From a phage, in sequence record PZ386963.1: a stretch of DNA of 64,000 nucleotides, one strand, 5' to 3'. The notes below the pieces were generated by a model, which was not told the DNA's origin, searched no databases, and saw only the letters and a program-made list of their open reading frames with translations. Shown one piece after another: positions 11,049-64,000 of this stretch. How positions within the stretch are numbered: the stretch's first letter is position 1; every line of letters starts with the position of its first letter. The position numbers and the translations under genes are program-made.

Positions 11049-11109
11049 ATCTTTATAAATCTTACAAGCCTCCTTAGTTGGGGGCTTTTTAGTAATTAAG
11101 GGAGATAAA

Positions 11110-11853: not shown

Positions 11854-11861
11854 AAGAGAGA

Positions 11862-12062
11862 ATGAAGATGAGAGTAAAAGACAATTTTAAAGTTATTGAC
11901 CACCGTTTAGTGGAACTCTCATCTCTTTCCAATGAGGTAATGATTGAACGTCTTAAGAGAGTTGAATCACGAAGGAAAGAGATTGCAGATGAAATTCATG
12001 AACTGGACAAGATTGAAAATGGATTAAAAGCAGAACTACAACGAAGAGGTGCTAATGTCTAA
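11862..12062 (+). CDS. Hypothetical coiled-coil protein
   Basis: 66-aa ORF. Confidence 0.35.
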   Translation: MKMRVKDNFKVIDHRLVELSSLSNEVMIERLKRVESRRKEIADEIHELDKIENGLKAELQRRGANV

Positions 12063-29297: not shown

Positions 29298-31079
29298 ATG
29301 ACTAAATCACTTTATGCAGTACCAGCAGGTTTAAACGCAGATGCTTACAAATCTGGTCATGTTTACCAGTATCCTAGTGCAACAGAGTACTTGATGTTCA
29401 ACCTGACACCACGTAGCGACAAATGGTTTAACAGCCCTTTAGCAATTGATGGTGTAGTGGCTTTTGGTATTCAACGTTTTGTTAAAGATTACTTGATAGA
29501 CCACTGGAACGCCACTTTCTTTGAACGTGATAAAAAAGAAGCAATTGACGAAATCTTAGAAGTCATGAATGGTGTTCTGGGTAAAGATACTATCGGTCGA
29601 GAGCATTGGGAAGCACTTCACGACTTAGGTTATCTGCCAGTTGAAGTATACGCTGTAGAAGAAGGCACAGTTGTCCCGATGCGTGTCCCAATGATTGTCT
29701 TCCAGAACACTGTTTCAGGTTTCCATTGGGTAGCAGGTTATCTGGAAGATGCTTTCTCTGCTGAGATTTGGAAGGCTTGCACCATTGCAACTATCGCATT
29801 GCACTACAAACGTATCTGTAAGAAGTGGGCTGACCTTACTTGCGACAACGACTTACATTTACCTTATCAGTGCCATGACTTTGCTATGCGTGGTATGTCC
29901 GGCTTTACTGATGACGCATTTAACGCTGTAGGCCACTTAACCAGCTTTAAAGGAACTGATAGCTTCCCTGCTGTATACACGGCTAAACGCATCTATGGAC
30001 AGTCTTACCCAATCTGTGATATTGGTAGCTCTGTACCAGCCACTGAACACTCTGTAATGTGTGCAAACATTGCTTGGGGAGGTGGTAATGAACTGATTGA
30101 AGAAGAAAGACGCTTTAAAGGTGAGTTACAAACCTTCCGTCGTTTCTTAACAGAAACTTACCCAACTGGTATTGCAAGTATTGTTTCAGATACTTATAAC
30201 TTCTGGAGAACTGTGTCAGAAATCTTACCAGCACTCCGTAAAGAAATTATGGAACGTGATGGCAAACTGGTAATTCGTCCTGACTCTGGAGACCCTGTAC
30301 ATATTGTCACAGGTTATAAAGCAATCCACTTAGAGTGTGCTAAGAAGGCTTATTATGAGCACCTAAGCAAGCTGGAAGCCAGTGACACAATGTTGAATGC
30401 TGTTCTGAACATGAAGCTTGAAAACATCAGCTATGGTATTGCTGGATGGCTACTGTCAGAAGGCTACGAAATGGTTGTTGACAGAGAAGACTTTGAAGCT
30501 GCTGATACAGTGATGTTGAAAAATGCTTATATGGTTGGTTCTGCAAACGTTGTAACACGCCCTGTAGCTGAGATTGATGGAGCTATTAAGACACTGTACA
30601 ACATCTTTGGGGGAACTATTAACTCTAAAGGGTTTAAGGTACTGGATGAGCACATCGGCCTTATCTATGGTGACTCTATCACGCTGGAACGTGCAAACGA
30701 AATCCTGAAGCGTCTGTATGAAATGGGTTTTGCAAGCTCTAACGTAGTGTTTGGTGTAGGTTCTTACACTTACCAGTACATGACTCGTGACACCTTTGCA
30801 TTTGCTGTCAAAGCAACTCTTGCAAGCATTGGTGGTAAAGAGATTATGCTTGCAAAAGACCCTAAAACAGATAGTGGTGTTAAGAAATCTGCCTTTGGTG
30901 GTGTAGCACCTATGTGGGATGGGGATAAGCTGAAAGCTGTAGATGGCTATGGATTCCAGAGTTTTGCAGATGCACTTGACCACCCAGCTTGTGCTTTACG
31001 TTTAGTCTTTAGCGACTCTGAGCAGTTCGGTTACACAACTCTTGGTGATATTCGAAATAATATTGACAAGCAGCTTTAA
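29298..31079 (+). CDS. Nicotinamide phosphoribosyltransferase (Nampt/NadV)-like protein; candidate Namat
   Basis: 593 aa; family assignment from overall Nampt-like sequence character, no single diagnostic motif picked out; immediately downstream of Prs-like gene. Confidence 0.65.
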   Translation: MTKSLYAVPAGLNADAYKSGHVYQYPSATEYLMFNLTPRSDKWFNSPLAIDGVVAFGIQRFVKDYLIDHWNATFFERDKKEAIDEILEVMNGVLGKDTIGREHWEALHDLGYLPVEVYAVEEGTVVPMRVPMIVFQNTVSGFHWVAGYLEDAFSAEIWKACTIATIALHYKRICKKWADLTCDNDLHLPYQCHDFAMRGMSGFTDDAFNAVGHLTSFKGTDSFPAVYTAKRIYGQSYPICDIGSSVPATEHSVMCANIAWGGGNELIEEERRFKGELQTFRRFLTETYPTGIASIVSDTYNFWRTVSEILPALRKEIMERDGKLVIRPDSGDPVHIVTGYKAIHLECAKKAYYEHLSKLEASDTMLNAVLNMKLENISYGIAGWLLSEGYEMVVDREDFEAADTVMLKNAYMVGSANVVTRPVAEIDGAIKTLYNIFGGTINSKGFKVLDEHIGLIYGDSITLERANEILKRLYEMGFASSNVVFGVGSYTYQYMTRDTFAFAVKATLASIGGKEIMLAKDPKTDSGVKKSAFGGVAPMWDGDKLKAVDGYGFQSFADALDHPACALRLVFSDSEQFGYTTLGDIRNNIDKQL

Positions 31080-31089
31080 AAGTATATGA

Positions 31090-31118
31090 TAAGAGGCTCC
31101 TACGGGAGCCTTTTTAAT
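31090..31118 (+). terminator. Rho-independent terminator
   Basis: GGCTCC-TACG-GGAGCC hairpin plus T-run. Confidence 0.6.
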
Positions 31119-31132
31119 TTCTGGAGAAAGAT

Positions 31133-31468
31133 ATGAAAATCAAAGAGATGAACATTAACGTTGTCCTAGAAGAACGTTGGGAAAACATTAAGAAACCTGA
31201 AGATGGTAAAAAGTTCCTTAACAAAATTTTAGTAGCAGCTAAAGAAGAACTGACTGGCAAGATTGCAGCAGCAATCACAATAAAAGTCTGTGTAAAAGGT
31301 CTTCCACAACATCACCAATTTGCACTTGACGAGTTTAAAGAAAGCTTCTACAATCCAAACAAACAGATACTTGAAAGTAACTTTGCAGTGTCTACAAGTA
31401 TCGTCCATGACAGAAGCTTTATCCTTTACAAAAACATGAGAGGTGAGTCATGCAAGCATATTGGATAG
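31133..31468 (+). CDS. Hypothetical protein
   Basis: 111-aa ORF. Confidence 0.35.
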   Translation: MKIKEMNINVVLEERWENIKKPEDGKKFLNKILVAAKEELTGKIAAAITIKVCVKGLPQHHQFALDEFKESFYNPNKQILESNFAVSTSIVHDRSFILYKNMRGESCKHIG

Positions 31469-52990: not shown

Positions 52991-53455
52991 TTACTTTGGA
53001 TATAGATTGTCAAGATAAATGGCAGCTTCCATTCTACGTCTGTTTTTCAGGCCGTTTGAAGTGACCTTCTTACCTTTGACTGTAACCTTGTTCCACCACT
53101 GCATAGCTTCTGCACAACCTACCTTATTACCAGCATTGTGACGCTTGATAAATGTAGAGTCCTGCATGGCTGTGATGCCAATGTTGTATGTTTCACTTAC
53201 AAGTGCATCAAACTCGTTCTGAGAAGTTGGAACCTTGATGGCTTTGTTAACTGCTGCAACGAACTTTTCAACATCTGCGAGAAGGTACTGTTCAGCTTGT
53301 TCAGCGGTAATCTTCATACCCATCTTAACAGGCTTACCAGCAATGCGGATTGTCCCATACCCAATTGTTGGGATTCCAGCAGAATCTTCGTAAGCCTCTA
53401 GCTTAAGACCTTCAAAGAACTTAATAGCTTCTAAACCTTTTCTTGAGAGTTGCAT
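52991..53455 (-). CDS. Endolysin, T4-type lysozyme (glycoside hydrolase family 24)
   Basis: FEGLKLEAYEDSAGIPTIGYG aligns with the T4 lysozyme Glu/Asp/Thr catalytic region. Confidence 0.75.
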   Translation of the reverse strand: MQLSRKGLEAIKFFEGLKLEAYEDSAGIPTIGYGTIRIAGKPVKMGMKITAEQAEQYLLADVEKFVAAVNKAIKVPTSQNEFDALVSETYNIGITAMQDSTFIKRHNAGNKVGCAEAMQWWNKVTVKGKKVTSNGLKNRRRMEAAIYLDNLYPK

Positions 53456-54588
53456 TATGCCTCCCCTGCTGGGTTAACAGTAACTGTTGCTGCATTAGAT
53501 GTTACAGAGCCACCTGCACCAGTAACTACACAGGTGTAGCTTCCTGCATCAGCAGCGGTTGCACCTTCTTTGGTGTAAGTTGCAGTAGTTGCATCGAGGA
53601 TGTCTTCCTCACCTTTCTTCCACTGGTAGCCTGTTGCACCTGTTGCCACAACATCCAGCGTTAAGGTATCACCTTCATTGATTTCTTGATTGGTTGGCTG
53701 TTGAGTAATTACTGGAAGTGCGTTCACAGTTACTACAGCAGCATTAGATGTCACTGCACCACCTGCACCTGTTACAACGCAAGTGTATGAACCTGCATCT
53801 GCTGGCAGAGCACCAGACTTGCTATAGGTGGCATCTGTAGCCGAAGGAATGTCAGAGCCATCTTTCTTCCACTGATAACCTGTTGCACCTGTTGCAGCCA
53901 CTTCCAAGTTGATGTTTCCACCCTCATTGATGGTCTGGTTAGAAGGTTGCTGTGTAATCACAGGCAGTGCGTTGACAGTAACTGTTGCCGCATCTGAGGT
54001 AACACTTGTCCCAGCCTCTCCAGATACAACACAAGTGTATGAACCTGCATCAGAAGGTAATACAGACTGTTTTGTGTAGGTTGCAGATGTGGCACTAGTG
54101 ATATCCTCACCACCCTTTTTCCACTGATATCCAGTGGCATTCGTTGCAACAACGCTTAGGGTAAGCGTACCACCTTCATTTACTGTTTGATTGGTTGGCT
54201 GCTGAGTGATTGCTGGCGGCTTGATAGCATCCTTCAACTTAGCATTCAACATTGAGAATGGTTTAACTCTTGCCAGCCATTCACAATAAATTGTATCAAC
54301 GTCTTTACCATTGATAATTGCATATTGTAAGTCCATGAAGAAGTCAGAAGTTCTCATTTGAGCACCGATGCTGTAAAGCAACTCATCACTAAATGGAACT
54401 TTGTAGTCTGGTTTGTAGTCAAACTCCTCAACTTCTGCAATATCAGCTTCAGGCCAATATGAGCTATAGGTGAGTGGTAAAATAGCCTCTTGATATGTTC
54501 TAAAATCATATCTCTTACCAGCCTTTACATTTGCAATGAAGCCCTTCACAAACTCTTTGAAGTCTGGGTAAGTCTTTGCTTTAATCAT
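53455..54588 (-). CDS. Protein with N-terminal domain paralogous to 54585-54956 product plus three tandem Ig-like repeats
   Basis: ~85-aa unit ITQQP(S/T)NQT(I/V)NEGG...GYQWKK...GSYTCVV...TV(N) repeated three times. Confidence 0.5.
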   Translation of the reverse strand: MIKAKTYPDFKEFVKGFIANVKAGKRYDFRTYQEAILPLTYSSYWPEADIAEVEEFDYKPDYKVPFSDELLYSIGAQMRTSDFFMDLQYAIINGKDVDTIYCEWLARVKPFSMLNAKLKDAIKPPAITQQPTNQTVNEGGTLTLSVVATNATGYQWKKGGEDITSATSATYTKQSVLPSDAGSYTCVVSGEAGTSVTSDAATVTVNALPVITQQPSNQTINEGGNINLEVAATGATGYQWKKDGSDIPSATDATYSKSGALPADAGSYTCVVTGAGGAVTSNAAVVTVNALPVITQQPTNQEINEGDTLTLDVVATGATGYQWKKGEEDILDATTATYTKEGATAADAGSYTCVVTGAGGSVTSNAATVTVNPAGEA

Positions 54589-54956
54589 TTCTTTTTAGCC
54601 TCTAAATGTGCGTTTAGTCTAAAATAACCTTTGTGATGCGGAGATACATCACCAACAACAATACCTTTAACCTTATAACCTTTACCAATTACATACTGGA
54701 TATCCATAAGGAATCTTCCAAGACCAACAATATGGAACATTGGATATAATAGATTCTCAGAATCTGGAATATTGATTTCAGGTTTGTAGGTACGCTGTTC
54801 GCTTGTTGGTGTAATATCTTCTTCAGGCCACTTACTGAGTCTCCATGTCAAAGGTGTTGGGATAACATCATTAAGGTTGTACCTTTCACCATTTTGCACG
54901 GAATTGATATAGGATTGTAGGAAGCAATAAAAGTCTTTTGCACTCTTAGCTTTCAT
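54585..54956 (-). CDS. Hypothetical protein, paralogue of N-terminal domain of 53455-54588 product
   Basis: Shared MxKAKxxxDF...YINxVxxGxRY and FLMDIQY(V/A)I motifs. Confidence 0.45.
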   Translation of the reverse strand: MKAKSAKDFYCFLQSYINSVQNGERYNLNDVIPTPLTWRLSKWPEEDITPTSEQRTYKPEINIPDSENLLYPMFHIVGLGRFLMDIQYVIGKGYKVKGIVVGDVSPHHKGYFRLNAHLEAKKK

Positions 54957-55003: not shown

Positions 55004-55594
55004 TTAAGCTTTGGTCTTAAGTAGGTTCTTAAGTTTTTTAAGATTCATACTCTCATCAAACTTAAAACCAAATCCATTGACATAATCAATGAACTCGGAT
55101 TTCTTACTAAGTGACAATGCGTAACTCATATCAAAGTTCTTACTTGTTTCTGCGTCTGGACTAGAGTTCACATCAAATGAAATTTCTGTAGGCTCTTGCT
55201 TACTTTTTCTCATATTATCAACCAACAAACATGTATAGTTTGCTGGATAGAAGTTTACACTACCATCAACGTAGCTGTACTTATTATTATGGATAAGGTT
55301 GGAAAATACCTTAAGAAATGTTTCTGAGTCGTGGCAAACAAGTTTGAATTGGCTGCTCTCTCCAAGCGCAACTAATGAGTACGGACTTTCACTATCAAAG
55401 TCATAATTTGGATTCGATGCCGTCACTGTTACACGCATCAAGTTATTAGCAATAGTCTTCTGTTTAAAAGAATTTTGAACATAGTGAAGACCTCTATCAC
55501 ACTGATTGACTAGCTCTTTAAGTAGGTCATTTGCATATGGTGAATTAATTGATACAGAGCCATCACTATTGTAATTAAAACTTACTGTTAACAT
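55004..55594 (-). CDS. Hypothetical protein
   Basis: 196 aa. Confidence 0.4.
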   Translation of the reverse strand: MLTVSFNYNSDGSVSINSPYANDLLKELVNQCDRGLHYVQNSFKQKTIANNLMRVTVTASNPNYDFDSESPYSLVALGESSQFKLVCHDSETFLKVFSNLIHNNKYSYVDGSVNFYPANYTCLLVDNMRKSKQEPTEISFDVNSSPDAETSKNFDMSYALSLSKKSEFIDYVNGFGFKFDESMNLKKLKNLLKTKA

Positions 55595-55821
55595 TTTTCA
55601 GTTCTCCTGCGATTTATAATTTTGCTGCAATAGAGAAACGAAGTAAACTCACTGGAAGAAACCATTAAGTGTTGTTCACTAGATTGAGCCATTGCCCTGA
55701 AATACATTCCAGTCAAAGCATCATAGTGACTATTCTTTCCAATTGAGGTTATATAGCCATGACTCTTTGCAGTTTGATATAAATCTATAATATCTGCGAT
55801 TTCTAATTGGGAACTACACAT
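55588..55821 (-). CDS. Hypothetical protein
   Basis: 77 aa. Confidence 0.3.
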   Translation of the reverse strand: MCSSQLEIADIIDLYQTAKSHGYITSIGKNSHYDALTGMYFRAMAQSSEQHLMVSSSEFTSFLYCSKIINRRRTEKC

Positions 55822-56213
55822 AGATAATCCTCTTGTCTTCTGTAATTTTGAAAGAACAGGTACAGACCAATTTCAGAGGATGAATAGTAGAGTAACTCTA
55901 CCCTTTTTGATTCCTTACAGTGATTGGTATTTTTACCTTTCTTCGGGTTGTTTGATTTTCTCATTAAGTCTCCTTTGTAGAACAAGGCAGACCTACAGCT
56001 TTAAGTAAGATGGTACAGTAATCCATACAACAAGTCAAGAACTATTGCAAGTTAAAAAAGTTGTTGACAAAGTACTTGACAAGGTGTAGGCTTATAAATA
56101 CTTAGAAGATAACTTAAAAGGTTCCTCTAAAAAGGCTATTTAAACAGATATCTTTCTGGATATCTATCTTTTATCTTAAAAGCCTTTTAAGAGGTCTTAT
56201 AAGAGGCATACCA

Positions 56214-56585
56214 ATGAAAAACAGAACAAACAAAGGCCAGTTTAAAAAAGGCCAGTCTGGAAACCCATCTGGAAGACCGAAAGGCTCACGTAACAAAAGT
56301 TCTCTCGTAAAAGCTCAACTGACCATTGATAATTCTGCTGAGTTTGCTGCAAAGTTGTTTGAAGCAATTGTTACAAGGGATGCTGCTAAGCTTGCAGAGT
56401 TCGGGTTAAACACAGACGACGTAACCATCAAGAGCATGATTGAGGTCGGTAAAACTATCATGACTCACTCAGCAGGTGAGATGAAAGCCATTGCAGCAGA
56501 CACTAAGAAGACTCCTGATAACGGTGGTCAGTCTCAGACAGATAACAAACCAACGTTCTCTGCTGTAGCGACTCTCAAAAAATAA
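56214..56585 (+). CDS. Hypothetical protein with N-terminal GQSGNPSGRPKG motif
   Basis: Basic Gly/Pro-rich N-terminal signature recalled as recurring at phage protein N-termini. Confidence 0.4.
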   Translation: MKNRTNKGQFKKGQSGNPSGRPKGSRNKSSLVKAQLTIDNSAEFAAKLFEAIVTRDAAKLAEFGLNTDDVTIKSMIEVGKTIMTHSAGEMKAIAADTKKTPDNGGQSQTDNKPTFSAVATLKK

Positions 56586-56666
56586 TTTTAAAAGGTGTTG
56601 ACAGACTCTACAAAGTTGCTCTAAAGTCTGTCACATCAAACAACAAATGAGAGAAGAGAGTAAAAT

Positions 56667-58082
56667 ATGAGCGAATTATTTAAACATGCGCACCTTCATG
56701 CAGGTCGAACTGAAAATGGTGCTGTAAACCATACTTCATCAATGTCTGCTCTTGTAGACTTTTACAAAGCTGCTGGTTCAAGCCGTAGCAACGTAGAAAT
56801 CTTACCAGACCTGTTCTATAAAGCTTTGCGTGAGGATGTTGATGTTGCAGTTCGTATTTTACTGCATATGCGAGATGTACGAGAAGGTATGGGTGAGCGT
56901 AAAGCCTTCAGAACTGTTTTGCTTCAAGCAATTGAAGATAAAGTTTTAGAGCCTACACAGGTTCTTCGCATTATGGATAAGATTGCAGAACTTGGTCGTT
57001 TTGATGACTTCAAAATCTTCGCAGGTACTCGTTTCGAGACAGATGCCTTCAAACATTTAGAAGCAGCATTACTAGACCCTGCAACAGCAGGTTTGGCAGC
57101 CAAGTGGTTACCACGAGTCAAACCACGTCACAAACAGTTTGTAAAACGTTTCTGCAAGTTTGCCAACTTGAGTGAGAAAGAGTACCGCACACTGTTGTCT
57201 GCACTATCTGATACAGTTGAGCAAAAAATCTCTGCTAATGAGTTTGGTAAGATTGATTACAGTAAGATTCCTTCACTTGCTGCTGCACGTTACCAAAAGC
57301 TGTTTAACCGCAAAGATGGAGAACGCTACAAAGCTTACATCGAGTCTTTATCAAAGGGTGAGACTAAGATTAATGCTGGTGCTGTTTACCCATACGATGT
57401 GATTAAGTCTGTTAAGTATGGTAATGCAGATGTTGCTAATGAGCAATGGAAAGCACTACCAAACTGGATGGCAGAGGGTGAAAACATTCTATGTATGTCT
57501 GATGTTTCATGTTCAATGTCTTGGGTGAATTTTGGCTCCATTACTGCTCTGGATATTGGTGTATCACTTGCATTGTATGTAGCAGAACGCAATACAGGTT
57601 GCTTTAAAAATGAGTTGATGGTTTATTCAACAAACCCTCACTTCATCGAACTGAGTGGTGATTTACGAAATCGCCATCGTCAGGTGATGCGACACGTTGA
57701 ATATGGTTCAACTAACTTACAAGCAGCTTTTGACCGTATTCTTGAGACAGGTAAAAGAAACAACTTGACTCAGAAAGATATGCCAAGTAAGCTTATCATC
57801 TTCTCCGATATGGAGTTCAATCAGGTTGATGGAGCTAACGGTCGTACAAACTTTGAAGCAATTCAGAGTAAGTACAAAAAAGCTGGATATGAGATGCCAC
57901 AACTGGTATTCTGGTACTTAGCAAACCGTAATGGTACTTGCGAAGTATCTGTTAAGGATAACGGTGTAGCAATGGTATCTGGTTTCTCCCCAGCCACTTT
58001 AAAAGCTCTGCTTGGTGGTGAGAAGTTTGACCCAATCAGCGTAATGCTCAAAGCAGTAATGATTGACCGTTATATCTGGTAA
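56667..58082 (+). CDS. vWA-domain protein with N-terminal helical domain (TROVE/Ro60-like or DUF2828-like architecture)
   Basis: MIDAS-like DVSCSMS (DxSxS) with downstream conserved Thr/Asp positions; 471 aa; directly upstream of tRNA cluster. Confidence 0.5.
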   Translation: MSELFKHAHLHAGRTENGAVNHTSSMSALVDFYKAAGSSRSNVEILPDLFYKALREDVDVAVRILLHMRDVREGMGERKAFRTVLLQAIEDKVLEPTQVLRIMDKIAELGRFDDFKIFAGTRFETDAFKHLEAALLDPATAGLAAKWLPRVKPRHKQFVKRFCKFANLSEKEYRTLLSALSDTVEQKISANEFGKIDYSKIPSLAAARYQKLFNRKDGERYKAYIESLSKGETKINAGAVYPYDVIKSVKYGNADVANEQWKALPNWMAEGENILCMSDVSCSMSWVNFGSITALDIGVSLALYVAERNTGCFKNELMVYSTNPHFIELSGDLRNRHRQVMRHVEYGSTNLQAAFDRILETGKRNNLTQKDMPSKLIIFSDMEFNQVDGANGRTNFEAIQSKYKKAGYEMPQLVFWYLANRNGTCEVSVKDNGVAMVSGFSPATLKALLGGEKFDPISVMLKAVMIDRYIW

Positions 58083-58101
58083 AAAAGTTTTAAAAAGGGT
58101 A

Positions 58102-58130
58102 TTGACAATATGTTTGATACCCTTTAATAT
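58102..58130 (+). promoter_or_regulatory. Sigma70-like promoter flanked by an 8-bp perfect inverted repeat
   Basis: TTGACA-17-TAATAT; AAGGGTAT...ATACCCTT straddles the -35 and spacer. Confidence 0.5.
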
Positions 58131-58192
58131 GTTCTACATAGAAACGAAACGAGAGCTTTTCTAAGATACTGAAAAATATTTTAAAAAAGTTC

Positions 58193-58222
58193 TTGACAAC
58201 CACTAAAAAATAATGTTAAAGT
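58193..58222 (+). promoter_or_regulatory. Sigma70-like promoter ~27 nt upstream of first tRNA
   Basis: TTGACA-18-TAAAGT. Confidence 0.45.
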
Positions 58223-58248
58223 GGTTACATAGAGTTTGAAAAGTTTAT

Positions 58249-58325
58249 CTCTGTTTAGCTCAGCTTGGTAGAGCGTTCCGTTTGGGGCGGTAAGGCCGGA
58301 GGTTCAAGTCCTCCAACAGAGACCA
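58249..58325 (+). tRNA. tRNA-Pro (anticodon TGG), CCA encoded
   Basis: Cloverleaf by eye: acceptor CTCTGTT/AACAGAG, D-arm GCTC/GAGC, loop TTTGGGG, T-loop TTCAAGT. Confidence 0.7.
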
Positions 58326-58332
58326 AATTAAT

Positions 58333-58410
58333 GTTCCAGTAGACAAAATGGTAAAGTCACCACTCTTTCAAAGTGGATATCTGAGGGTTCAAATCCCTTC
58401 TGGAACGCCA
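58333..58410 (+). tRNA. tRNA-Glu (anticodon TTC), CCA encoded
   Basis: Acceptor GTTCCAG/CTGGAAC, anticodon stem CCACT/AGTGG, loop CTTTCAA. Confidence 0.65.
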
Positions 58411-58416
58411 GTTTTG

Positions 58417-58492
58417 ACAGAAGACCAATTACAGCAAACTTAATCTTATTCATCTGAAGGTAAATCGGACAAAGAAGAGATTTGGTCTGGTC
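58417..58492 (+). ncRNA. Conserved inter-tRNA hairpin element, copy 1 (candidate small RNA or processing signal)
   Basis: ACAGAAGACCAATTACAGCAA at 5' end pairs with TTGGTCTGG at 3' end. Confidence 0.35.
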
Positions 58493-58502
58493 ATTAAGAA
58501 TT

Positions 58503-58578
58503 GCGGGTATAGAGAAAGGGCGTCTCACATGTCTCATTAGCATGGTATCGGCAGGTTCGACTCCTGCACCCGCCTCCA
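58503..58578 (+). tRNA. tRNA-Met/Ile2 (anticodon CAT) with unpaired position 1-72
   Basis: D-stem GAGA/TCTC, anticodon stem CATGT/GCATG, loop CTCATTA, T-arm GCAGG/CCTGC. Confidence 0.55.
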
Positions 58579-58583
58579 AATTT

Positions 58584-58650
58584 ACAGAAGACCGTTTACA
58601 GCAATATTTATTAAATTTTTAGCGGAAAAATTGAAAGATACGGTCTGGTA
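58584..58650 (+). ncRNA. Conserved inter-tRNA hairpin element, copy 2
   Basis: ACAGAAGACCGTTTACAGCAA ... ACGGTCTGG. Confidence 0.35.
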
Positions 58651-58661
58651 ATACTAAACAT

Positions 58662-58738
58662 GGTTAGGAAGCACATAAGGTATGTGCGGTCGCCTGTTAA
58701 GCGAATGGCACAGGGTTCGAATCCCTGACTAACCGCCA
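58662..58738 (+). tRNA. tRNA-Asn (anticodon GTT)
   Basis: D-stem GCAC/GTGC, loop CTGTTAA, T-arm CAGGG/CCCTG, 3' end ACTAACC-G-CCA. Confidence 0.65.
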
Positions 58739-58807
58739 AATTTAGGAGAGAAGCGATTGCTCACCGATTTGTAAGGTGCAAGTCCTTAGCCTGAATAGAA
58801 ATTAAAT

Positions 58808-58895
58808 GTGTCGTTATCCCGTAGATGGTAGCGGTGGGGACTGTAAATCCCTTGTCATTGAGACTCGGTAGGTTCGACTCCTACACGGCACACCA
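58808..58895 (+). tRNA. tRNA-Tyr (anticodon GTA), long variable arm
   Basis: Acceptor GTGTCGT/ACGGCAC, loop CTGTAAA, 15-nt variable arm, T-loop TTCGACT. Confidence 0.65.
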
Positions 58896-58900
58896 ATAAA

Positions 58901-58978
58901 GGTTATGTAGTTTAATTTGGTTAAAATACTCCCCTGTCACGGGAGATGATGAGGGTTCAAATCCCTTCGTAACCGCCA
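58901..58978 (+). tRNA. tRNA-Asp (anticodon GTC)
   Basis: Acceptor GGTTATG/CGTAACC, anticodon stem CTCCC/GGGAG, loop CTGTCAC. Confidence 0.65.
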
Positions 58979-59038
58979 ATTTTGAGAGGGCTATTTAGCC
59001 CCTCCCTTAAAGAGTTCTTACGAGTATTCTTTAAAGGA

Positions 59039-59113
59039 GCAGAAGACCAAATACAGCAAGTTACTTAAAATTTCAAGCCAATTTAATTTTGAAAAATTTA
59101 AAACTTGGTCTGG
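59039..59113 (+). ncRNA. Conserved inter-tRNA hairpin element, copy 3
   Basis: CAGAAGACCAAATACAGCAA ... TTGGTCTGG. Confidence 0.35.
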
Positions 59114-59125
59114 CTCAACAAATTT

Positions 59126-59258
59126 ACAGAAGACCGTTTACAGCAAAACTTAAACAATCTATTTCTCGGTAAAGAAAAGGTGAAGGTTCGATTCCTTCAC
59201 TCGGCAGATGTCGAGTTGGTGTAATGGTAGCACTTAAGATGATAAACAACGTTCTGGT
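59126..59258 (+). ncRNA. Conserved element copy 4 containing tRNA-like T-arm and D-arm fragments
   Basis: ACAGAAGACCGTTTACAGCAA ... GAAGGTTCGATTCCTTC ... GTTGGTGTAATGGTAGCAC ... AACGTTCTGG. Confidence 0.3.
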
Positions 59259-59402
59259 AATTATCTTTGTAGATAAGTTATTAAGCTTACCTGTGAGTAT
59301 GCGACCACAAAGGGTGAAAGGGTAAATTCTAGATTTAAACCCAAAAAGGCACATCGCTACAGACCTTAAGCAAGTCTGGGTAGCTTATCTACAAAGATAA
59401 TT
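59257..59402 (+). ncRNA. Candidate structured RNA closed by a 17-bp long-range inverted repeat
   Basis: TTATCTTTGTAGATAAG (59261-59277) is the exact reverse complement of CTTATCTACAAAGATAA (59386-59402), enclosing ~108 nt. Confidence 0.35.
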
Positions 59403-59406
59403 TAAT

Positions 59407-59482
59407 GGAAGTGTAGCAGAATGGTGATGCGGCAGACTTTTAATCTGACAGGCGATGGGTTCGAATCCCTCCACTTCTACCA
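59407..59482 (+). tRNA. tRNA-Lys (anticodon TTT), weak T-stem
   Basis: Acceptor GGAAGTG/CACTTCT, loop CTTTTAA, T-loop TTCGAAT; two T-stem mismatches. Confidence 0.55.
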
Positions 59483-59486
59483 AAAT

Positions 59487-59563
59487 GGTTCAGTCGCAGA
59501 TAAGGTAATGCAAGGGTCTCATAAGCCCTATGAATGTGGGTTCGAATCCCATCTGAACCTCCA
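59487..59563 (+). tRNA. tRNA-Met/Ile2 (anticodon CAT)
   Basis: Acceptor GGTTCAG/CTGAACC, anticodon stem AGGGT/GCCCT, loop CTCATAA. Confidence 0.65.
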
Positions 59564-59565
59564 AT

Positions 59566-59640
59566 TGTGGGTTAGCATAAATGGTAATGCAAACGGCTGA
59601 TAACCGTTAGAAGAGGGTTCGATACCCTCACCTACAACCA
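59566..59640 (+). tRNA. tRNA-Ile (anticodon GAT)
   Basis: Acceptor TGTGGGT/ACCTACA, anticodon stem AACGG/CCGTT, loop CTGATAA. Confidence 0.6.
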
Positions 59641-59655
59641 ATTTCAATAAAGTTG

Positions 59656-59684
59656 TTGACATTGAAATGTGACTACTTTATAGT
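59656..59684 (+). promoter_or_regulatory. Sigma70-like promoter inside the tRNA cluster
   Basis: TTGACA-17-TATAGT; flanked by ATTTCAA/TTGAAAT inverted repeat. Confidence 0.5.
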
Positions 59685-59977
59685 AACTAAAATACTTCAT
59701 AATATGTATAATTCAAACACCAATACATGAGCGTTAGACGTAACACAATGTGGGGAAATTTGTTGTACATATTCTGAATAGTTTTCGTTGCGTAGCGTCT
59801 ATTTTGCAAATTTAAAATAAATGCAAACGACAATGTTTTTCTGGCAGTAGCTTGATAGGCTAAACACCAGTGAGGTCTTCCAATCCCTCATCAAAGAATT
59901 TGGCGTACTCGCCCACGGTATGATTAATAAGGTGGGCATCTTTAAGGGCTTTCTAAGAGAGTCTTTAAAGATAATTA

Positions 59978-60059
59978 CGGGGCGTATCTCAGCGGTCTTC
60001 TAAACCGCCGTTAACCGAGTAAGTGGAGTATGCGGGTTCGAGTCCTGCCGCCTCGACCA
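59978..60059 (+). tRNA. Atypical tRNA-like gene (possible Arg, anticodon TCT); D-arm not resolvable
   Basis: Acceptor CGGGGCG/CGCCTCG, stem-loop GCGGT-CTTCTAA-ACCGC, T-arm GCGGG/CCTGC, CCA encoded. Confidence 0.4.
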
Positions 60060-60202
60060 ATTTAGTTAGCAGATTACTTAGACGACCTAAGCGGGTCTTC
60101 CTGTAGGGAGGTGGTCTGTATCTCATGTTTTCCAGAACATGTAAATAATCTGAGAAGGGGCTTTACAGTGTTGAGATAATACGGTAAGCTTCGAATTATA
60201 GT

Positions 60203-60285
60203 ATGGGACGATGTTAAGACTCTAAGGCATGAGCAACGGCCTCCAAAACCGTTTCAAAGGGGTTCAACTCCTCCGTCCCATGCCA
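60203..60285 (+). tRNA. Atypical tRNA-like gene with Trp anticodon arm (CCA); ~7 extra nt between acceptor and D-arm
   Basis: Perfect acceptor ATGGGAC/GTCCCAT, D-arm CTC/GAG, loop CTCCAAA, T-loop TTCAACT. Confidence 0.45.
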
Positions 60286-60298
60286 AAGTCTTATTATG

Positions 60299-60388
60299 GG
60301 TAGGTAGCGGCTAATGGTAGCCAAACTGTCTTGAAAACAGTTGCCACTGTAGAGATACGGTGAGGGTTCGACTCCTTTACTTACCGCC
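60299..60388 (+). tRNA. tRNA-Ser (anticodon TGA), long variable arm
   Basis: Acceptor GGTAGGT/ACTTACC, anticodon stem ACTGT/ACAGT, loop CTTGAAA, 20-nt variable arm. Confidence 0.65.
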
Positions 60389-60543
60389 TAATAAGATTTT
60401 AAAGCCAAGCTTCATTCGGATGTTGCTTTGGTATCCCTCGTGTATTGTCGTACACACTGATAAAGCACCTAGTAGGTGTCACGGAGAAGAGATAATATCA
60501 AGCTCTCCAAAGGTTCTAGTCACCGGATTAAACAAGACTATGC

Positions 60544-60566
60544 AAAGACCTTTTTAGGTCTTTTTA
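60544..60566 (+). terminator. Rho-independent terminator-like hairpin within tRNA cluster
   Basis: AGACC-TTTTTA-GGTCT followed by TTTTT. Confidence 0.5.
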
Positions 60567-60644
60567 GAGGGCTTCTAAGGTTATTACAGCTTGTTGTGGA
60601 ACCTTGTTGCTTAGGTTCTTAGAAGTTCTCTAAAAAGATTTAAT

Positions 60645-60722
60645 GGGAGATTGATGGTAATTGGTAAACCTACCATCCTTAGAAGTTGGTGTTTGAGGGT
60701 TCGAATCCCTTGTCTCCTACCA
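60645..60722 (+). tRNA. Atypical tRNA (possibly Leu, anticodon TAG; short variable arm)
   Basis: Acceptor GGGAGAT/GTCTCCT with wobble ends, loop CTTAGAA, T-arm GAGGG/CCCTT; D-arm irregular. Confidence 0.45.
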
Positions 60723-60729
60723 AATTAAT

Positions 60730-60805
60730 GCAGGTGTAGCAAAATGGTTATGCGGCTGACTCTTAATCAGTAAGACGACGGGTTCAATTCCCTCCACCTG
60801 TACCA
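60730..60805 (+). tRNA. tRNA-Lys (anticodon CTT)
   Basis: Acceptor GCAGGTG/CACCTGT, D-stem GCA/TGC, anticodon stem GCTGA/TCAGT, loop CTCTTAA. Confidence 0.6.
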
Positions 60806-60811
60806 GACATT

Positions 60812-60887
60812 GGGGTCATAGTTTATATGGTTAAAATTCGAGTTTTGCAAACTTGGGAACTGAGTTCAATTCTCAGTGACTCCACCA
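60812..60887 (+). tRNA. tRNA-Ala (anticodon TGC)
   Basis: Acceptor GGGGTCA/TGACTCC with G3:U70 pair, loop TTTGCAA, T-arm CTGAG/CTCAG. Confidence 0.7.
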
Positions 60888-60893
60888 ATTAGT

Positions 60894-60968
60894 GCATCCA
60901 TAGTTTAAACGGGAAAATTACAGTCTTCCAAACTGAGGTTGAGGGTTCGATTCCCTCTGGATGCTCCA
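60894..60968 (+). tRNA. tRNA-Gly (anticodon TCC)
   Basis: Acceptor GCATCCA/TGGATGC, loop CTTCCAA, T-arm GAGGG/CCCTC. Confidence 0.65.
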
Positions 60969-60974
60969 AACAAT

Positions 60975-61051
60975 GCTGCTTTCGTATAATTGGCTATTAC
61001 ACATCCCTTGTAAGGATGGAGATGCGGGTTCAAGTCCTGTGAGCAGCACCA
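60975..61051 (+). tRNA. tRNA-Thr (anticodon TGT)
   Basis: Acceptor GCTGCTT/GAGCAGC, anticodon stem CATCC/GGATG, loop CTTGTAA. Confidence 0.65.
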
Positions 61052-61146
61052 ATTCAGAGGTCAAGTGAAAGACCGCTGGTGTCAACTGAAGACCGTAACA
61101 AATTCCACGGAGTTGAGTTAGCGGCACAACTTCAGACCTCTTTCAC
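61052..61146 (+). ncRNA. Inter-tRNA spacer with long-range inverted repeat (candidate structured RNA)
   Basis: AGAGGTC (61056-61062) pairs with GACCTCT (61134-61140). Confidence 0.3.
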
Positions 61147-61221
61147 ACTCGCTTAGTTTATATGGTAAAACATCACCCTTACAAGATGAAGAAAAAGGTT
61201 CAAGTCCTTTAGTGAGTACCA
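61147..61221 (+). tRNA. tRNA-Val (anticodon TAC)
   Basis: Acceptor ACTCGCT/AGTGAGT, D-stem GTTT/AAAC, loop CTTACAA, T-arm AAAGG/CCTTT. Confidence 0.6.
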
Positions 61222-61222
61222 T

Positions 61223-61300
61223 GTTCCAGTATCCCAATTGGCAGAGGATGCAAGCTCAAACCTTGTATTAGTGACGGTTCGAATCCGTCTTGGAACACCA
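61223..61300 (+). tRNA. tRNA with anticodon CAA (Leu) but short variable arm
   Basis: Acceptor GTTCCAG/TTGGAAC, anticodon stem GCAAG/CTTGT, loop CTCAAAC, T-arm GACGG/CCGTC. Confidence 0.5.
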
Positions 61301-61305
61301 ATTTT

Positions 61306-61381
61306 GCAGGATTAGTTCAAATGGATAGAGCAACAGTCTACGAAACTGTTAATAGGGGTTCGAATCCCTTATCCTGCGCCA
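61306..61381 (+). tRNA. tRNA-Arg (anticodon ACG)
   Basis: Acceptor GCAGGAT/ATCCTGC, D-arm GTTC/GAGC, anticodon stem ACAGT/ACTGT, loop CTACGAA. Confidence 0.7.
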
Positions 61382-61399
61382 GATAAGCAAGAGGAATTT

Positions 61400-61642
61400 A
61401 TGCAAACATTAACCGTCGTTGAACATGAAAATTCCAATAGTATTGAGTTTGTAAGGGTTCCCACTATAGATACCCACATTTTCTTAAAAGTCGGATGGGA
61501 ATGCGACCCAATAAAAGTAGAAAGATTTATTGGTCATTGCTTTGGTGGAAGACAACTTAAAAGTATCAATTTTGAGACAATGTTACCAGAAAGCTCAGAA
61601 ACAAATAATAATGCTTACCTCCTTACGAGGGTTAGACAATGA
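61400..61642 (+). CDS. Hypothetical protein embedded in tRNA cluster
   Basis: 80 aa behind AAGAGGA RBS. Confidence 0.45.
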   Translation: MQTLTVVEHENSNSIEFVRVPTIDTHIFLKVGWECDPIKVERFIGHCFGGRQLKSINFETMLPESSETNNNAYLLTRVRQ

Positions 61643-62196
61643 GATACTTAAAATATGCTTCATGGATTTTCTTAGCTTTACTAGACCCAATTGCAGCAAT
61701 CCTAGCAGTTATCTTAGCACCTTTCGTAGTTCCATTCTACAGTGAGAAGAAAGGGCATCTACCTTTTGGATTCAGATGGATGGAGACCTATGACAACCCA
61801 ATTGATGGTGATGAAGGTCACGTTAAAAGATGGGCTAAGGTTAGAAAGATTGGTAAGCTGGGTGTCTACATGCAGAGAGTCGGATGGCTCTGGAGAAACA
61901 AAGCTTATAACTTCTCTTACCATGTATTAGGAAGAGATGTAAAAGATGTTACTAAGTGGAAAGGTAATATCAACGTAAGTTCTGACCCTGAAGATAATCA
62001 GACAGGTTATCTCCTAATGTGGAACAACAATGCTTGGGGATTATTCGCTTTTATTCCGTCAATTAAAGTCTTTGGTAAACAGTTTTACTGGAGAATCTAT
62101 GTTGGATGGAAACTAAAAAGTGTTGTCCCAGAAGAAAGAGCATTCTCAAGGGAAAGAGTTATGTTGGCATTCTTTATTCATCCACTGAGAAAGTAA
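61639..62196 (+). CDS. Membrane-anchored hypothetical protein embedded in tRNA cluster
   Basis: 185 aa, hydrophobic N-terminal ~30 aa, Trp-rich; ATGA overlap with previous gene. Confidence 0.45.
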   Translation: MRYLKYASWIFLALLDPIAAILAVILAPFVVPFYSEKKGHLPFGFRWMETYDNPIDGDEGHVKRWAKVRKIGKLGVYMQRVGWLWRNKAYNFSYHVLGRDVKDVTKWKGNINVSSDPEDNQTGYLLMWNNNAWGLFAFIPSIKVFGKQFYWRIYVGWKLKSVVPEERAFSRERVMLAFFIHPLRK

Positions 62197-62204
62197 AGAT
62201 TTAA

Positions 62205-62280
62205 AGGGGATTAGTTTACAAGGTTAAAACCTCGGTCTTTGAAATCGAAGAAGTTGGTTCAATTCCAACATCCCCCGCCA
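62205..62280 (+). tRNA. tRNA-Gln (anticodon TTG), position 1-72 unpaired
   Basis: D-stem GTTT/AAAC, anticodon stem TCGGT/ATCGA, loop CTTTGAA, T-arm GTTGG/CCAAC. Confidence 0.6.
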
Positions 62281-62282
62281 AT

Positions 62283-62361
62283 GCTCCATTACTCCAATTG
62301 GCAGAGAGGCCAGACTTAAAATCTGTGTTATGTATCGGTTCGAATCCGATATGGAGTACCA
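62283..62361 (+). tRNA. tRNA with anticodon TAA (Leu), short variable arm
   Basis: Acceptor GCTCCAT/ATGGAGT, loop CTTAAAA, T-arm ATCGG/CCGAT. Confidence 0.5.
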
Positions 62362-62366
62362 AATTT

Positions 62367-62442
62367 AGCGGTATAGCATAACTGGCAATGCAGCAGTCTC
62401 TGAAGCTGTCCTATTAAGGTTCAAATCCTTATGCCGCTGCCA
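62367..62442 (+). tRNA. tRNA-Gln (anticodon CTG)
   Basis: Acceptor AGCGGTA/TGCCGCT, D-arm GCAT/ATGC, loop CTCTGAA, T-arm TAAGG/CCTTA. Confidence 0.6.
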
Positions 62443-62473
62443 CTTCTAAGGGTTCTTACGAGAGTCCTTAAAT

Positions 62474-62549
62474 GTGGCCTTATCATAAATGGTAATGACC
62501 CATGCTGTGAACATGGTCTATACGGGTTCAAATCCCGTAGGTCACCCCA
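62474..62549 (+). tRNA. tRNA-His (anticodon GTG), discriminator C
   Basis: Acceptor GTGGCCT/AGGTCAC, D-arm TCAT/ATGA, anticodon stem CCATG/CATGG, loop CTGTGAA. Confidence 0.7.
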
Positions 62550-62554
62550 ATTTA

Positions 62555-62631
62555 TAGTCCAAGTAGCTTATATGGTTAAAGCGCGTGTCTGAAAAACATG
62601 AGAAGAGGGTTCAAATCCCACTGGACTACCA
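62555..62631 (+). tRNA. tRNA-Phe (anticodon GAA), irregular acceptor-to-D-arm spacing
   Basis: Acceptor TAGTCCA/TGGACTA, D-stem GCTT/AAGC, loop CTGAAAA, T-loop TTCAAAT. Confidence 0.55.
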
Positions 62632-62647
62632 ATTTCAAAGGTGCTTA

Positions 62648-63382
62648 ATGAAAGAGATGACAGAACAAGGTAAGGAGATTTTTAATCTCTTAAAAACCGG
62701 TAAAGGGTTTTCTAACCCACTTATTACTGGTGCAGCAGTTCTCGGTGGAACCGTAGCTGCCTCTACATCACTTGTAAGCTCTATTAGCTCTGTAACAGAC
62801 CCTACAATGAAGGAGAAGCTTGTTGCTGCTGGACTTACAACAGTCCTTCTAAACAGCTTTACAACAAGCCTGACAAGCACTACAGCAACTACTAAGACCC
62901 TAACAGACTATGGTCAAAAGTCTATTGATGAGTTTTCATCACGTATGCAGGTAGCAAAGGGGTACTCCAATGTTATGGGTGCAGCAGGAGAACAAGTTGG
63001 TTGTACACCATTCAGTGGTATTATGGGTGTTGCTACAGAGTACGGTCAGCAAGCTATTGGCATGATTAACAGCACACTAGACAGTGTTAACGGTGTGTTA
63101 AGTGATTTACAAGACGCTATTGATGAGGGTCTTGATACTGTTTCTGATTTAGCTAATCAGGCTGTTAGTAAGATTAATGAAGGTATCTCAAAGATTACAG
63201 CTTATGCAGATGAAGTTGTGCAGATGATTGAAGAAGAAGCTGCCCTTATTGCAGAGTACCTTAAAACGAATATCAATGGGTTCTTAGCAGGTATCTTACC
63301 AGACTGGTTTGATGATGCTTGTAAAACTGGTGTAATTGACACCATTGCAACACCAGAAATGAAGAGCGCATTACAGAAATAA
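62648..63382 (+). CDS. Ser/Thr-rich hypothetical protein embedded in tRNA cluster
   Basis: ATG at 62648 just after tRNA-Phe; 244 aa with low-complexity S/T segment. Confidence 0.45.
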   Translation: MKEMTEQGKEIFNLLKTGKGFSNPLITGAAVLGGTVAASTSLVSSISSVTDPTMKEKLVAAGLTTVLLNSFTTSLTSTTATTKTLTDYGQKSIDEFSSRMQVAKGYSNVMGAAGEQVGCTPFSGIMGVATEYGQQAIGMINSTLDSVNGVLSDLQDAIDEGLDTVSDLANQAVSKINEGISKITAYADEVVQMIEEEAALIAEYLKTNINGFLAGILPDWFDDACKTGVIDTIATPEMKSALQK

Positions 63383-63383
63383 T

Positions 63384-63476
63384 GGAAGATTAACCCTAAA
63401 AGGTAAGGGAGCAGTTTGCTAAACTGCCAGTAGCTGAGAAATCGGTGTACCAGTTCAAGTCTGGTATCTTCCTCCA
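63384..63476 (+). tRNA. tRNA-Ser (anticodon GCT), long variable arm
   Basis: Acceptor GGAAGAT/ATCTTCC, anticodon stem GCAGT/ACTGC, loop TTGCTAA, T-arm ACCAG/CTGGT. Confidence 0.65.
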
Positions 63477-63480
63477 ATCT

Positions 63481-63556
63481 GAATCCGTGACAGAAATGGA
63501 TATGTGCCTGTCTGCAAAACAGGTTTATAAGGGTTCGAGTCCCTTCGGATTCTCCA
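63481..63556 (+). tRNA. tRNA-Cys (anticodon GCA)
   Basis: Acceptor GAATCCG/CGGATTC, anticodon stem CCTGT/ACAGG, loop CTGCAAA, T-arm AAGGG/CCCTT. Confidence 0.65.
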
Positions 63557-63594
63557 AGTTATTTTACTCTCTCTCAATTAAAATAATAATAATG

Positions 63595-63655
63595 CCCTGC
63601 TATAAGTATTCTTCCTTTCGCTACCGAAGAGTATTTTTAGACAGGGCTTTTTTAC
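63595..63655 (+). terminator. Terminator-like compound hairpin ending the tRNA cluster
   Basis: GCCCTG ... CAGGGC followed by TTTTTT. Confidence 0.4.
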
Positions 63656-63778
63656 AGAGTTATACTTTATAGGAAGACTTATACAGTATGTCTCTGACGT
63701 ACATTGTGGTTTCTCCTTGACGGTCTCTGTGCCGTCTTTTTTAAGGGGAAACAAGATTTATTATTTGGAGAAAACATA

Positions 63779-63979
63779 ATGAGCGAGAACGTTTATAAAG
63801 AACTTTATGAAGCTAACAAGAAGTTAGAGTTTATGCAGAATACTATCATGGCAATTGCAGATAGATTATCTGTAGCAACAGGTATTGATATTAAAGAAGC
63901 ATCTATGGATGCACTTCTTGATGCTGTTGATGTAAAGTTCGAAGTTAAGAAAGAAGAGACTGCTACAGACTCTGAATAA
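63779..63979 (+). CDS. Hypothetical protein
   Basis: Start at MSENVYKE behind GGAG RBS; preceded by GACGG...CCGTC-TTTTTT hairpin. Confidence 0.4.
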   Translation: MSENVYKELYEANKKLEFMQNTIMAIADRLSVATGIDIKEASMDALLDAVDVKFEVKKEETATDSE

Positions 63980-64000
63980 TTCTATTTGCGGAGGCGCTTA

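Follow-up and report, generated by a model that had tools for sequence, protein, structure and literature searches.

A Ro60-like protein gene of Felixounavirus phages and a candidate family of Y-like RNAs in the adjoining tRNA cluster

We analyzed a 64-kb stretch of phage DNA (PZ386963.1, hereafter the window) from a Felixounavirus that is ~98% identical to Felix O1 (NC_005282). At positions 56667–58082 it encodes a 471-aa protein that is predicted to be Ro60-like by structure, not by sequence, and the tRNA cluster directly downstream contains four small stem-loop elements, E1 to E4, that we propose as its RNA partners. The same motif, a 7-bp helix followed by a single-stranded 8-mer, recurs beside members of this gene family in phages whose bacterial hosts differ widely, and the RNAs are therefore likely partners of the protein. 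Our best explanation, to which we assign a probability of about 0.65 as a whole (RNA ligands included), is that the protein is a divergent member of the Ro60 structural family, in which a ring-type helical TROVE-like domain is capped by a von Willebrand A (vWA) domain that contains a MIDAS (metal ion-dependent adhesion site), and that small stem-loop RNAs of one class, E1–E4 among them, are its most likely cognate ligands. We infer direct binding from the tight, strand-specific, and cross-phylum linkage between motif and gene, and from the precedent of Ro60, which has Y RNAs beside its gene.

The Ro60 interpretation of the protein, and even the idea of a Ro60/Y-RNA pair for this exact gene, is already known from a 2024 preprint, in which the Bas63 ortholog gp130 was found to resemble Ro60 structurally and to counter the Ppl defense system (PMC11482910). 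The RefSeq name of the gene ('RNA-binding protein') and the annotation of mycobacteriophage homologs, ~33% identical over the full length, as 'Ro-like RNA binding protein' likewise precede our reading. The preprint named no RNA and pointed to the annotated tRNA genes directly downstream of the gp130 gene, 'some' of which 'are possibly Y RNAs' (PMC11482910). Our candidates, by contrast, lie in spacers and carry no gene annotation, and they share a defined motif conserved across the whole protein family. It is this RNA partner family and its defining motif that appear to be undescribed: full-text literature searches returned no description of the RNA motif, including its 8-mer.

Four stem-loop elements in the tRNA spacers

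A cluster of 25 tRNA genes lies downstream of the gene. The original prediction, made from the letters of the window, had placed this cluster within ~170 bp of the gene and had noted conserved non-tRNA hairpins within it, and both statements hold: the first tRNA starts at 58249, 166 nt past the stop codon, and reading the tRNA spacers revealed four exact copies of AGAAGACCnnnTACAGCAA, all on the + strand between 58419 and 59146 (chance expectation 0.77 even with three mismatches allowed). These copies mark four elements, listed here with their E-values from R2, the second of two covariance models:

58415–58493, + strand: E1, short Y-like stem-loop that fills the tRNA-Glu/tRNA-Met spacer; E 1.5e-9
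58582–58651, + strand: E2, short Y-like stem-loop that fills the tRNA-Met/tRNA-Asn spacer, motif at 58597–58604; E 9e-8
59037–59116, + strand: E3, short Y-like stem-loop in the tRNA-Asp/tRNA-Lys spacer, motif at 59052–59059; E 3e-8
59124–59260, + strand: E4, YrlA-like RNA, motif at 59139–59146; R2 spans 59125–59259, E 1.6e-3

The elements start 333–1042 nt past the stop codon of the gene and on the same strand. E1 and E2 each take up a whole spacer (91 nt and 83 nt), and E3 and E4 lie inside the 428-nt spacer before tRNA-Lys. E1–E3 have a common fold that consists of a 4-bp outer helix, an AGA bulge opposite one G, and a 7-bp helix (AGACCnn/nnGGUCU), past which one unpaired base is followed by single-stranded UACAGCAA that opens the loop. 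In E1, for example, the outer helix is UGAC/GUCA, the 7-bp helix is AGACCAA/UUGGUCU, and UACAGCAA is at 58430–58437. The sequence of the outer helix varies from copy to copy among E1–E3 while its pairing is kept. As in Y RNAs and YrlA, the loop is closed by a stem that forms between the 5′ and 3′ ends, with a bulged outer helix in E1–E4. The elements are Y-like in architecture, but they are not members of the known Y RNA families, and no Rfam family covers them; Rfam scans of the tRNA cluster and of four related loci gave only weak transfer-messenger RNA (tmRNA) and tRNA-Sec matches, on other tRNA-like pieces.

The tRNA-like module of E4

The closing helix of E4 (59131–59137 with 59249–59255) encloses four hairpins in the order of a circularly permuted tRNA:

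59162–59177, + strand: V-like hairpin
59182–59198, + strand: T arm, GAAGG-UUCGAUU-CCUUC, canonical with a UUCGAUU loop; 100% paired
59200–59215, + strand: closed acceptor-like hairpin, CUCGGC-AGAU-GUCGAG; three of six pairs change on both sides in Sf16 and Moogle
59218–59234, + strand: D arm, GGUG-UAAUGGUAG-CACU

The acceptor-like stem is rewritten in Sf16 and Moogle with its pairing kept, and the Moogle E4 retains G-CCA right after the 3′ acceptor strand, within the loop. Across the six helices of E4, 98.2% of cells are paired, compared with 42–54% when the partner strand is slid, in a small sample of seven distinct sequences. Minimum free energy folding of E4 alone did not recover the closing helix because of a mismatch specific to this strain; the orthologs resolved the helix, which is perfect in seven relatives. 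E4 alone contains the internal module of YrlA (V-like hairpin, T arm, closed acceptor-like stem, and D arm), which E1–E3 lack. E4-like layouts with unrelated sequences also occur in three other loci (L028, L038, and L074).

The motif covaries and is linked to the gene family

We searched for the motif around homologous genes in a first set of 75 viral-contig loci, whose proteins are 38–47% identical to the query, and in an independent set of 80 bacterial-genome loci that was kept out of model building. Within 1 kb of the gene and on its strand, the 8-mer TACAGCAA is enriched ~11-fold (58 occurrences in 146 kb versus 33 in 932 kb), and only five occurrences near the gene are on the opposite strand. 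A first helix control, which accepted any helix of at least 7 bp at randomly chosen positions, proved too lenient, with 42% of random sites passing, and was replaced by alignment-based covariation counts and covariance models. The first model, R1, was built on 22 short elements from the window and 14 viral loci. The 7-bp helix of these 22 sequences is 97.4% paired, versus 23–49% with the partner slid, and shows 50 double-sided changes, versus 12.7±2.7 in shuffles.

R1 yielded 84 matches at E≤1 in 77 loci (1.09 Mb), all 84 of which are on the gene strand. By position, 57 of 77 matches lie within 1 kb of the gene, 15 of those 57 in its 5′ leader, and most others abut tRNA genes; in many loci the elements lie beside the gene without any tRNA gene in 17 kb. 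The 58 matches in the independent bacterial-genome set likewise all share the strand of the gene, and most of them lie a short distance upstream of it. In 67 pooled matches the helix is 99.6% paired with double-sided changes at all seven pairs, and the consensus is A [A-G-R-N4] W U-W-C-A-G-C-A-A ... [N4-Y-C-U] G, with C, G, and C at 99–100%. At E≤0.1, R2 covers 54 of the 75 viral and 51 of the 80 bacterial-genome loci, beside homologous genes of 29–45% identity and with every match on the gene strand. The elements include two copies upstream of the gene in Listeria phage LP-083-2, one copy 35 nt downstream of the gene in mycobacteriophage Rumpelstiltskin, one copy beside the gene in Yersinia phage P778, and a weak copy over the ribosome-binding site in Vibrio phage phi-pp2. 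Within the window, the covariance models score E1–E4 only, and all four elements are kept from Felix O1 to Moogle. The tRNA-cluster regions of T4 and T5 gave nothing better than E 3.8, and T7 gave no match at E≤5. The original prediction considered a phage ribonucleoprotein (RNP) made of this protein and a neighboring structured RNA to be a real possibility, and the conserved RNA motif that our comparisons tie to the gene family supports it.

Several related loci carry short element copies in the 5′ leader of the Ro60-like gene (L012 1758–1799, L086 4959–5010, L008 7948–7990, and L016 2853–2894), where the 3′ arm adjoins or overlaps the Shine-Dalgarno sequence or the start codon. Their position suggests translational feedback on the gene. 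No such copies occur in Felix-type phages, and covariance-model scans found no RNA motif in the leader (81-nt gap) of the window's gene.

Two longer element classes have the same closing helix and motif. One, of ~240 nt, follows right after a short element (L013 9468–9724, L014 9470–9732, L017 8547–8788, L025 9456–9688, L057 6077–6323, and similar) and has conserved blocks of its own, GUCGAAGU.UAGUAGAC, GCCGAAGAC, and GAUAUAGCUGCCGAG, two of which fit the YrlA motif GNCGAAG. The other, of ~100 nt, has the conserved insert CCUUUCUGGAGGGGAAAGCAAAAACUCGCCAAAA (L008 7273–7373, L009 3130–3235, and L027 7731–7831).

The protein family and its predicted fold

The gene is present with the extent that had been predicted, and the protein has the predicted layout of an N-terminal helical region and a C-terminal vWA domain:

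56667–58082, + strand: gene for the Ro60-like RNA-binding protein, 471 aa, ATG start; ortholog of Felix O1 ORF42 and Bas63 gp130
56667–57461, + strand: N-terminal all-helical domain, DUF2828, residues ~1–265; TROVE-like by predicted fold
57486–58031, + strand: C-terminal vWA domain, DUF7788, residues 274–455; Pfam E 3e-43
57501–57515, + strand: MIDAS DxSxS, D279–S283, completed by T349 and D381; columns invariant in 86 homologs

The full length of the protein matches PHROG 850 ('RNA-binding protein', E 2e-183). Its two halves match Pfam DUF2828 (PF11443; E 3e-29, 102.5 bits against a cut-off of 29) and DUF7788 (PF25043; 148 bits against a cut-off of 27.1). The DVSCSMS stretch corresponds to residues 279–285, and D279, S281, S283, T349, and D381 are invariant in the 86 homologs, so the sequence indicates a complete MIDAS (DxSxS...T...D), which had been proposed to be intact. 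At least 710 sequenced phages, whose hosts are Gram-negative, Gram-positive, and actinobacterial, carry a member of the family, as do many contigs from bacterial genomes.

The layout had been likened to those of TROVE and DUF2828-type proteins; the DUF2828 profile bears out membership in the latter, whereas the likeness to Ro60 is found by fold. The Pfam TROVE profile (PF05731) matched neither the window protein at E≤1 nor any of the 86 family members at E≤10, no Ro60 was retrieved from the PDB sequences with phmmer or a family-profile search, and an NCBIfam scan gave nothing useful. Pfam vWA_Ro60 (PF25045) matched 17 of the 86 relatives weakly (best E 1.7e-4) and left the window protein itself unmatched. 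The structure prediction that had been suggested as a check yielded a confident AlphaFold2 model (pLDDT 90.4, pTM 0.89), for which Foldseek ranks 1 to 12 are all Ro60/TROVE entries. In this predicted model, the helical-repeat N-terminal domain and the C-terminal vWA domain have a layout that is superposable on Ro60.

Proposed function and alternative explanations

Three features define the proposed ligand class: a 7-bp helix that opens with A-G-R and closes with Y-C-U, a G after the 3′ arm, and, immediately 3′ of the 5′ arm, one unpaired base followed by U-W-C-A-G-C-A-A in single-stranded form. In the window, E1–E4 would be transcribed together with the tRNAs in the tRNA operon from promoter-like sites upstream, for which there are two candidates:

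58102–58130, + strand: promoter-like site TTGACA-17-TAATAT ahead of the tRNA/element block; consensus match only
58193–58222, + strand: promoter-like site TTGACA-18-TAAAGT with an extended −10 TG, ahead of tRNA-Pro; consensus match only

The RNAs could then be released by tRNA-processing enzymes, with RNase P acting at the tRNA downstream and 3′ trimming at the one upstream. By analogy with Ro60 and Y RNA, they may gate the protein on binding it, or may link it to other factors such as exoribonucleases of the host or tRNA enzymes, and in related phages the leader copies may provide feedback control of the gene. The output of the protein is known experimentally for the ortholog gp130, which counters host Ppl and improves phage growth. 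Its gene, bas63_0130, has 94% nucleotide identity to the window gene and occupies the same place directly upstream of tRNA-Pro. Deletion of gp130 leads to tiny plaques on a Ppl-carrying host, which is reversed by complementation, and T7 is rescued on a ppl host when a plasmid or its own genome supplies gp130 (PMC11482910). A literature search on the mechanism of Ppl gave nothing beyond this preprint.

Several observations weigh against the pairing of protein and RNAs. The rescue of T7 by gp130 alone weighs most, and T7 carries no matching element; the RNAs are therefore not required for the anti-Ppl activity and may serve regulation or a second function. A scan of the tRNA cluster with Y-RNA models had been suggested; there is no Rfam Y RNA match at E≤1 in 55500–64000, nor at E≤0.1 in four related loci, and the canonical Ro60-binding motif (GNCGAAN0-1G, or CGAA) is absent from E1–E4 and from the whole + strand of 58084–63600. 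Between 28% and 36% of homolog loci have no element at E≤0.1 within the fetched flanks. The closing helix of E4 is mismatched in the window, where a strain-specific G-to-T change at 59252 gives C·U. The E-values of the models are rough because calibration was shortened, and alignment A5 was fitted to the model, so that its pair counts lean towards structure.

The T7 result also favors an explanation in which the protein acts alone, as a Ppl inhibitor or a general growth factor (for example, via its vWA/MIDAS face), and the hairpins are cis operators or titration sites and not RNP cofactors. Also in its favor, many phages carry a copy in the leader of the gene, beside or over the Shine-Dalgarno sequence. 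The window phage has no leader copy, though, and its four copies are in a tRNA operon with promoter-like sites of its own; moreover, some copies hold elaborate conserved inserts (tRNA-like modules and 240-nt domains) that a simple operator would not need, and an operator would still need the protein to bind the motif. We consider this explanation unlikely, if the most serious of the alternatives.

The hairpins could also be processing or stability signals of phage tRNA precursors, read by host or other phage RNases and with no direct link to the protein. The elements do fill tRNA spacers to within a few bases in the window and in several other phages, and the tRNA clusters of T4 and T5 contain small stable RNAs as well. 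Those clusters lack the motif, however, and the loci with elements beside the gene and far from any tRNA gene, together with the upstream position of most bacterial-genome matches, make this role improbable. Least probable of all, to a degree that we regard it as very remote, is that the repeats serve no function of their own and are decayed tRNA genes, or else small repeats that are mobile or arose by recombination. E4 is plainly tRNA-derived, as its T arm, its D arm, and the G-CCA of the Moogle ortholog attest, and homing endonuclease genes come and go in the tRNA cluster; yet the helix covaries and the single-stranded 8-mer is near-invariant across phages of different bacterial phyla, all matches are on the gene strand, and all four elements have been retained from Felix O1 to Moogle.

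A broader view of a Ro60-like protein with its own RNA ligands has, in our estimate, even odds: DUF2828/DUF7788 proteins would be a second, sequence-distinct branch of Ro60 with a Y-like RNA class of its own (recognized through the helix with UWCAGCAA instead of CGAA, in permuted-tRNA and tRNA-operon versions), forming an RNP that manipulates host RNA metabolism against defenses such as Ppl. Much of the Ro60/Y-RNA world would then have escaped searches restricted to TROVE-annotated genomes. The system is tractable: the ortholog has a clean genetic phenotype (Ppl, transferable to T7), and the candidate RNA ligand is precisely defined and present in four copies in a phage group that has been well studied. 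The motif also lets annotators label spacer RNAs in phage tRNA clusters that are now left blank or miscalled as small ORFs (open reading frames).

Comparison with known systems

In bacteria and in phages, Y RNAs are encoded close to Ro60 genes and on the strand of the gene (PMC4201824; PMC12135203). The closest bacterial parallel is Rsr with YrlA and YrlB (Chen et al. 2014, PMC4201824), which combines a ring-shaped protein bearing a vWA/MIDAS domain, here a predicted fold, with RNAs that share its gene's strand and lie no more than a few kb away; E1–E4 lie within the ~4 kb applied to YrlA. One long RNA with a stem-closed, permuted tRNA-like module accompanied by shorter RNAs without it is a further likeness, E4 corresponding to the former and E1–E3 to the latter. 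Unlike Rsr, the protein here is invisible to the TROVE hidden Markov model; the RNA motif is UWCAGCAA next to the helix and not GNCGAAN0-1G, and Rfam models miss it; and E1–E4 are embedded in a tRNA operon, unlike the Y RNAs of Rsr. The RNA-repair setting of bacterial rsr resembles the locus of Listeria phage LP-083-2, in which the Ro60-like gene lies between a tRNA cluster and downstream genes for an RtcB-like protein, an RNA ligase, and an HD phosphohydrolase. Inside the same tRNA cluster, ~1 kb upstream of the Ro60-like gene, there is a match to the ROOL RNA (L088 3429–3980; 87 bits, E 3e-16), which is below the gathering score of 99.

Thermus phage phiLo also encodes a protein of the Ro60 fold with small RNAs, Yrl1 and Yrl2, beside its gene (PMC12135203; PDB: 9KOP, 9L5Y), and phiLo Ro60 has been proposed to hijack host polynucleotide phosphorylase (PNPase) against host defense (PMC12135203). 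It is, however, a canonical TROVE protein with ~15% sequence identity to the window protein, and its RNAs contain CGAA. Stable non-tRNA RNAs within phage tRNA clusters have a precedent in T4 and T5:

T5 (L169), 10285–13950: small stable RNAs RNAI, RNAIII, RNAIV, and the tRNA-like RNA1–3, annotated
T4 (L170), 30909–31172: rnaC and rnaD, annotated

These differ from E1–E4 in having no match to the motif model beyond the E 3.8 given above, and, judging from organism counts, T4 and T5 appear to lack the protein.

Gene neighborhood and other features of the tRNA cluster

Upstream of the gene are two features on the same strand:

56214–56585, + strand: 123-aa DUF5681 ORF; Pfam DUF5681 E 2e-14
56598–56627, + strand: sigma-70-like promoter match TTGACA-18-TAAAGT in the 81-nt gap before the gene; consensus match only

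The 123-aa ORF had been suggested to be co-transcribed with the gene. The ORF exists, but a promoter-like site separates it from the gene, and among ~170 loci tblastn detected it only in Ounavirinae-like ones. Because co-occurrence is restricted to these phages, we rejected it as a conserved partner and regard it as a lineage-specific neighbor. Farther upstream, a 377-aa ORF (53455–54588, − strand) contains three tandem copies of ~90 aa (ITQQP[TS]NQ..NEG...YQWKK...AGSYTCVV), which are immunoglobulin-like repeats; its Bas63 counterpart is annotated 'immunoglobulin-like domain protein', and the adjacent ORF at 54585–54956 has an N-terminal region in common with it.

Other structures share the long spacer with E3 and E4. 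Right after E4 and before tRNA-Lys, a long near-perfect hairpin with a 22-bp base stem (59261–59404; −46 kcal/mol, z −5.5) is conserved at ≥95% in ~190 Felixounavirus records and was not found outside Felixounavirus. Two stable hairpins (58979–59036; z −3.1) lie between tRNA-Asp and E3, the first of which is G+C-rich (GGGCUAUUUAGCCC) and has no T run.

Compared with Felix O1 (L001), the 58.9–61.1 kb region of the window lacks three HNH homing-endonuclease ORFs (ORF44, 45, and 47) that are in the Felix O1 tRNA cluster, and at the position of ORF44 it carries a second tRNA-Met (59487–59563). ARAGORN left two tRNA-like pieces uncalled. The piece at 60205–60281 has an acceptor stem, a T arm, a 3′ CCA, and a weak tRNA-Sec match (E 0.6), and its anticodon-like loop could, by eye, read CCA (Trp), which none of the 25 called tRNAs carries as anticodon. 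The other, at 59978–60059, resembles tRNA-Arg(UCU) in an aberrant form and takes the place of the canonical tRNA-Arg of Bas63, Sf16, and Moogle; Rfam matches it weakly to the tRNA-like domain of tmRNA. Its anticodon loop and T arm are those of the canonical tRNA-Arg, but the acceptor stem differs, the D region is truncated, and 17 nt are inserted.

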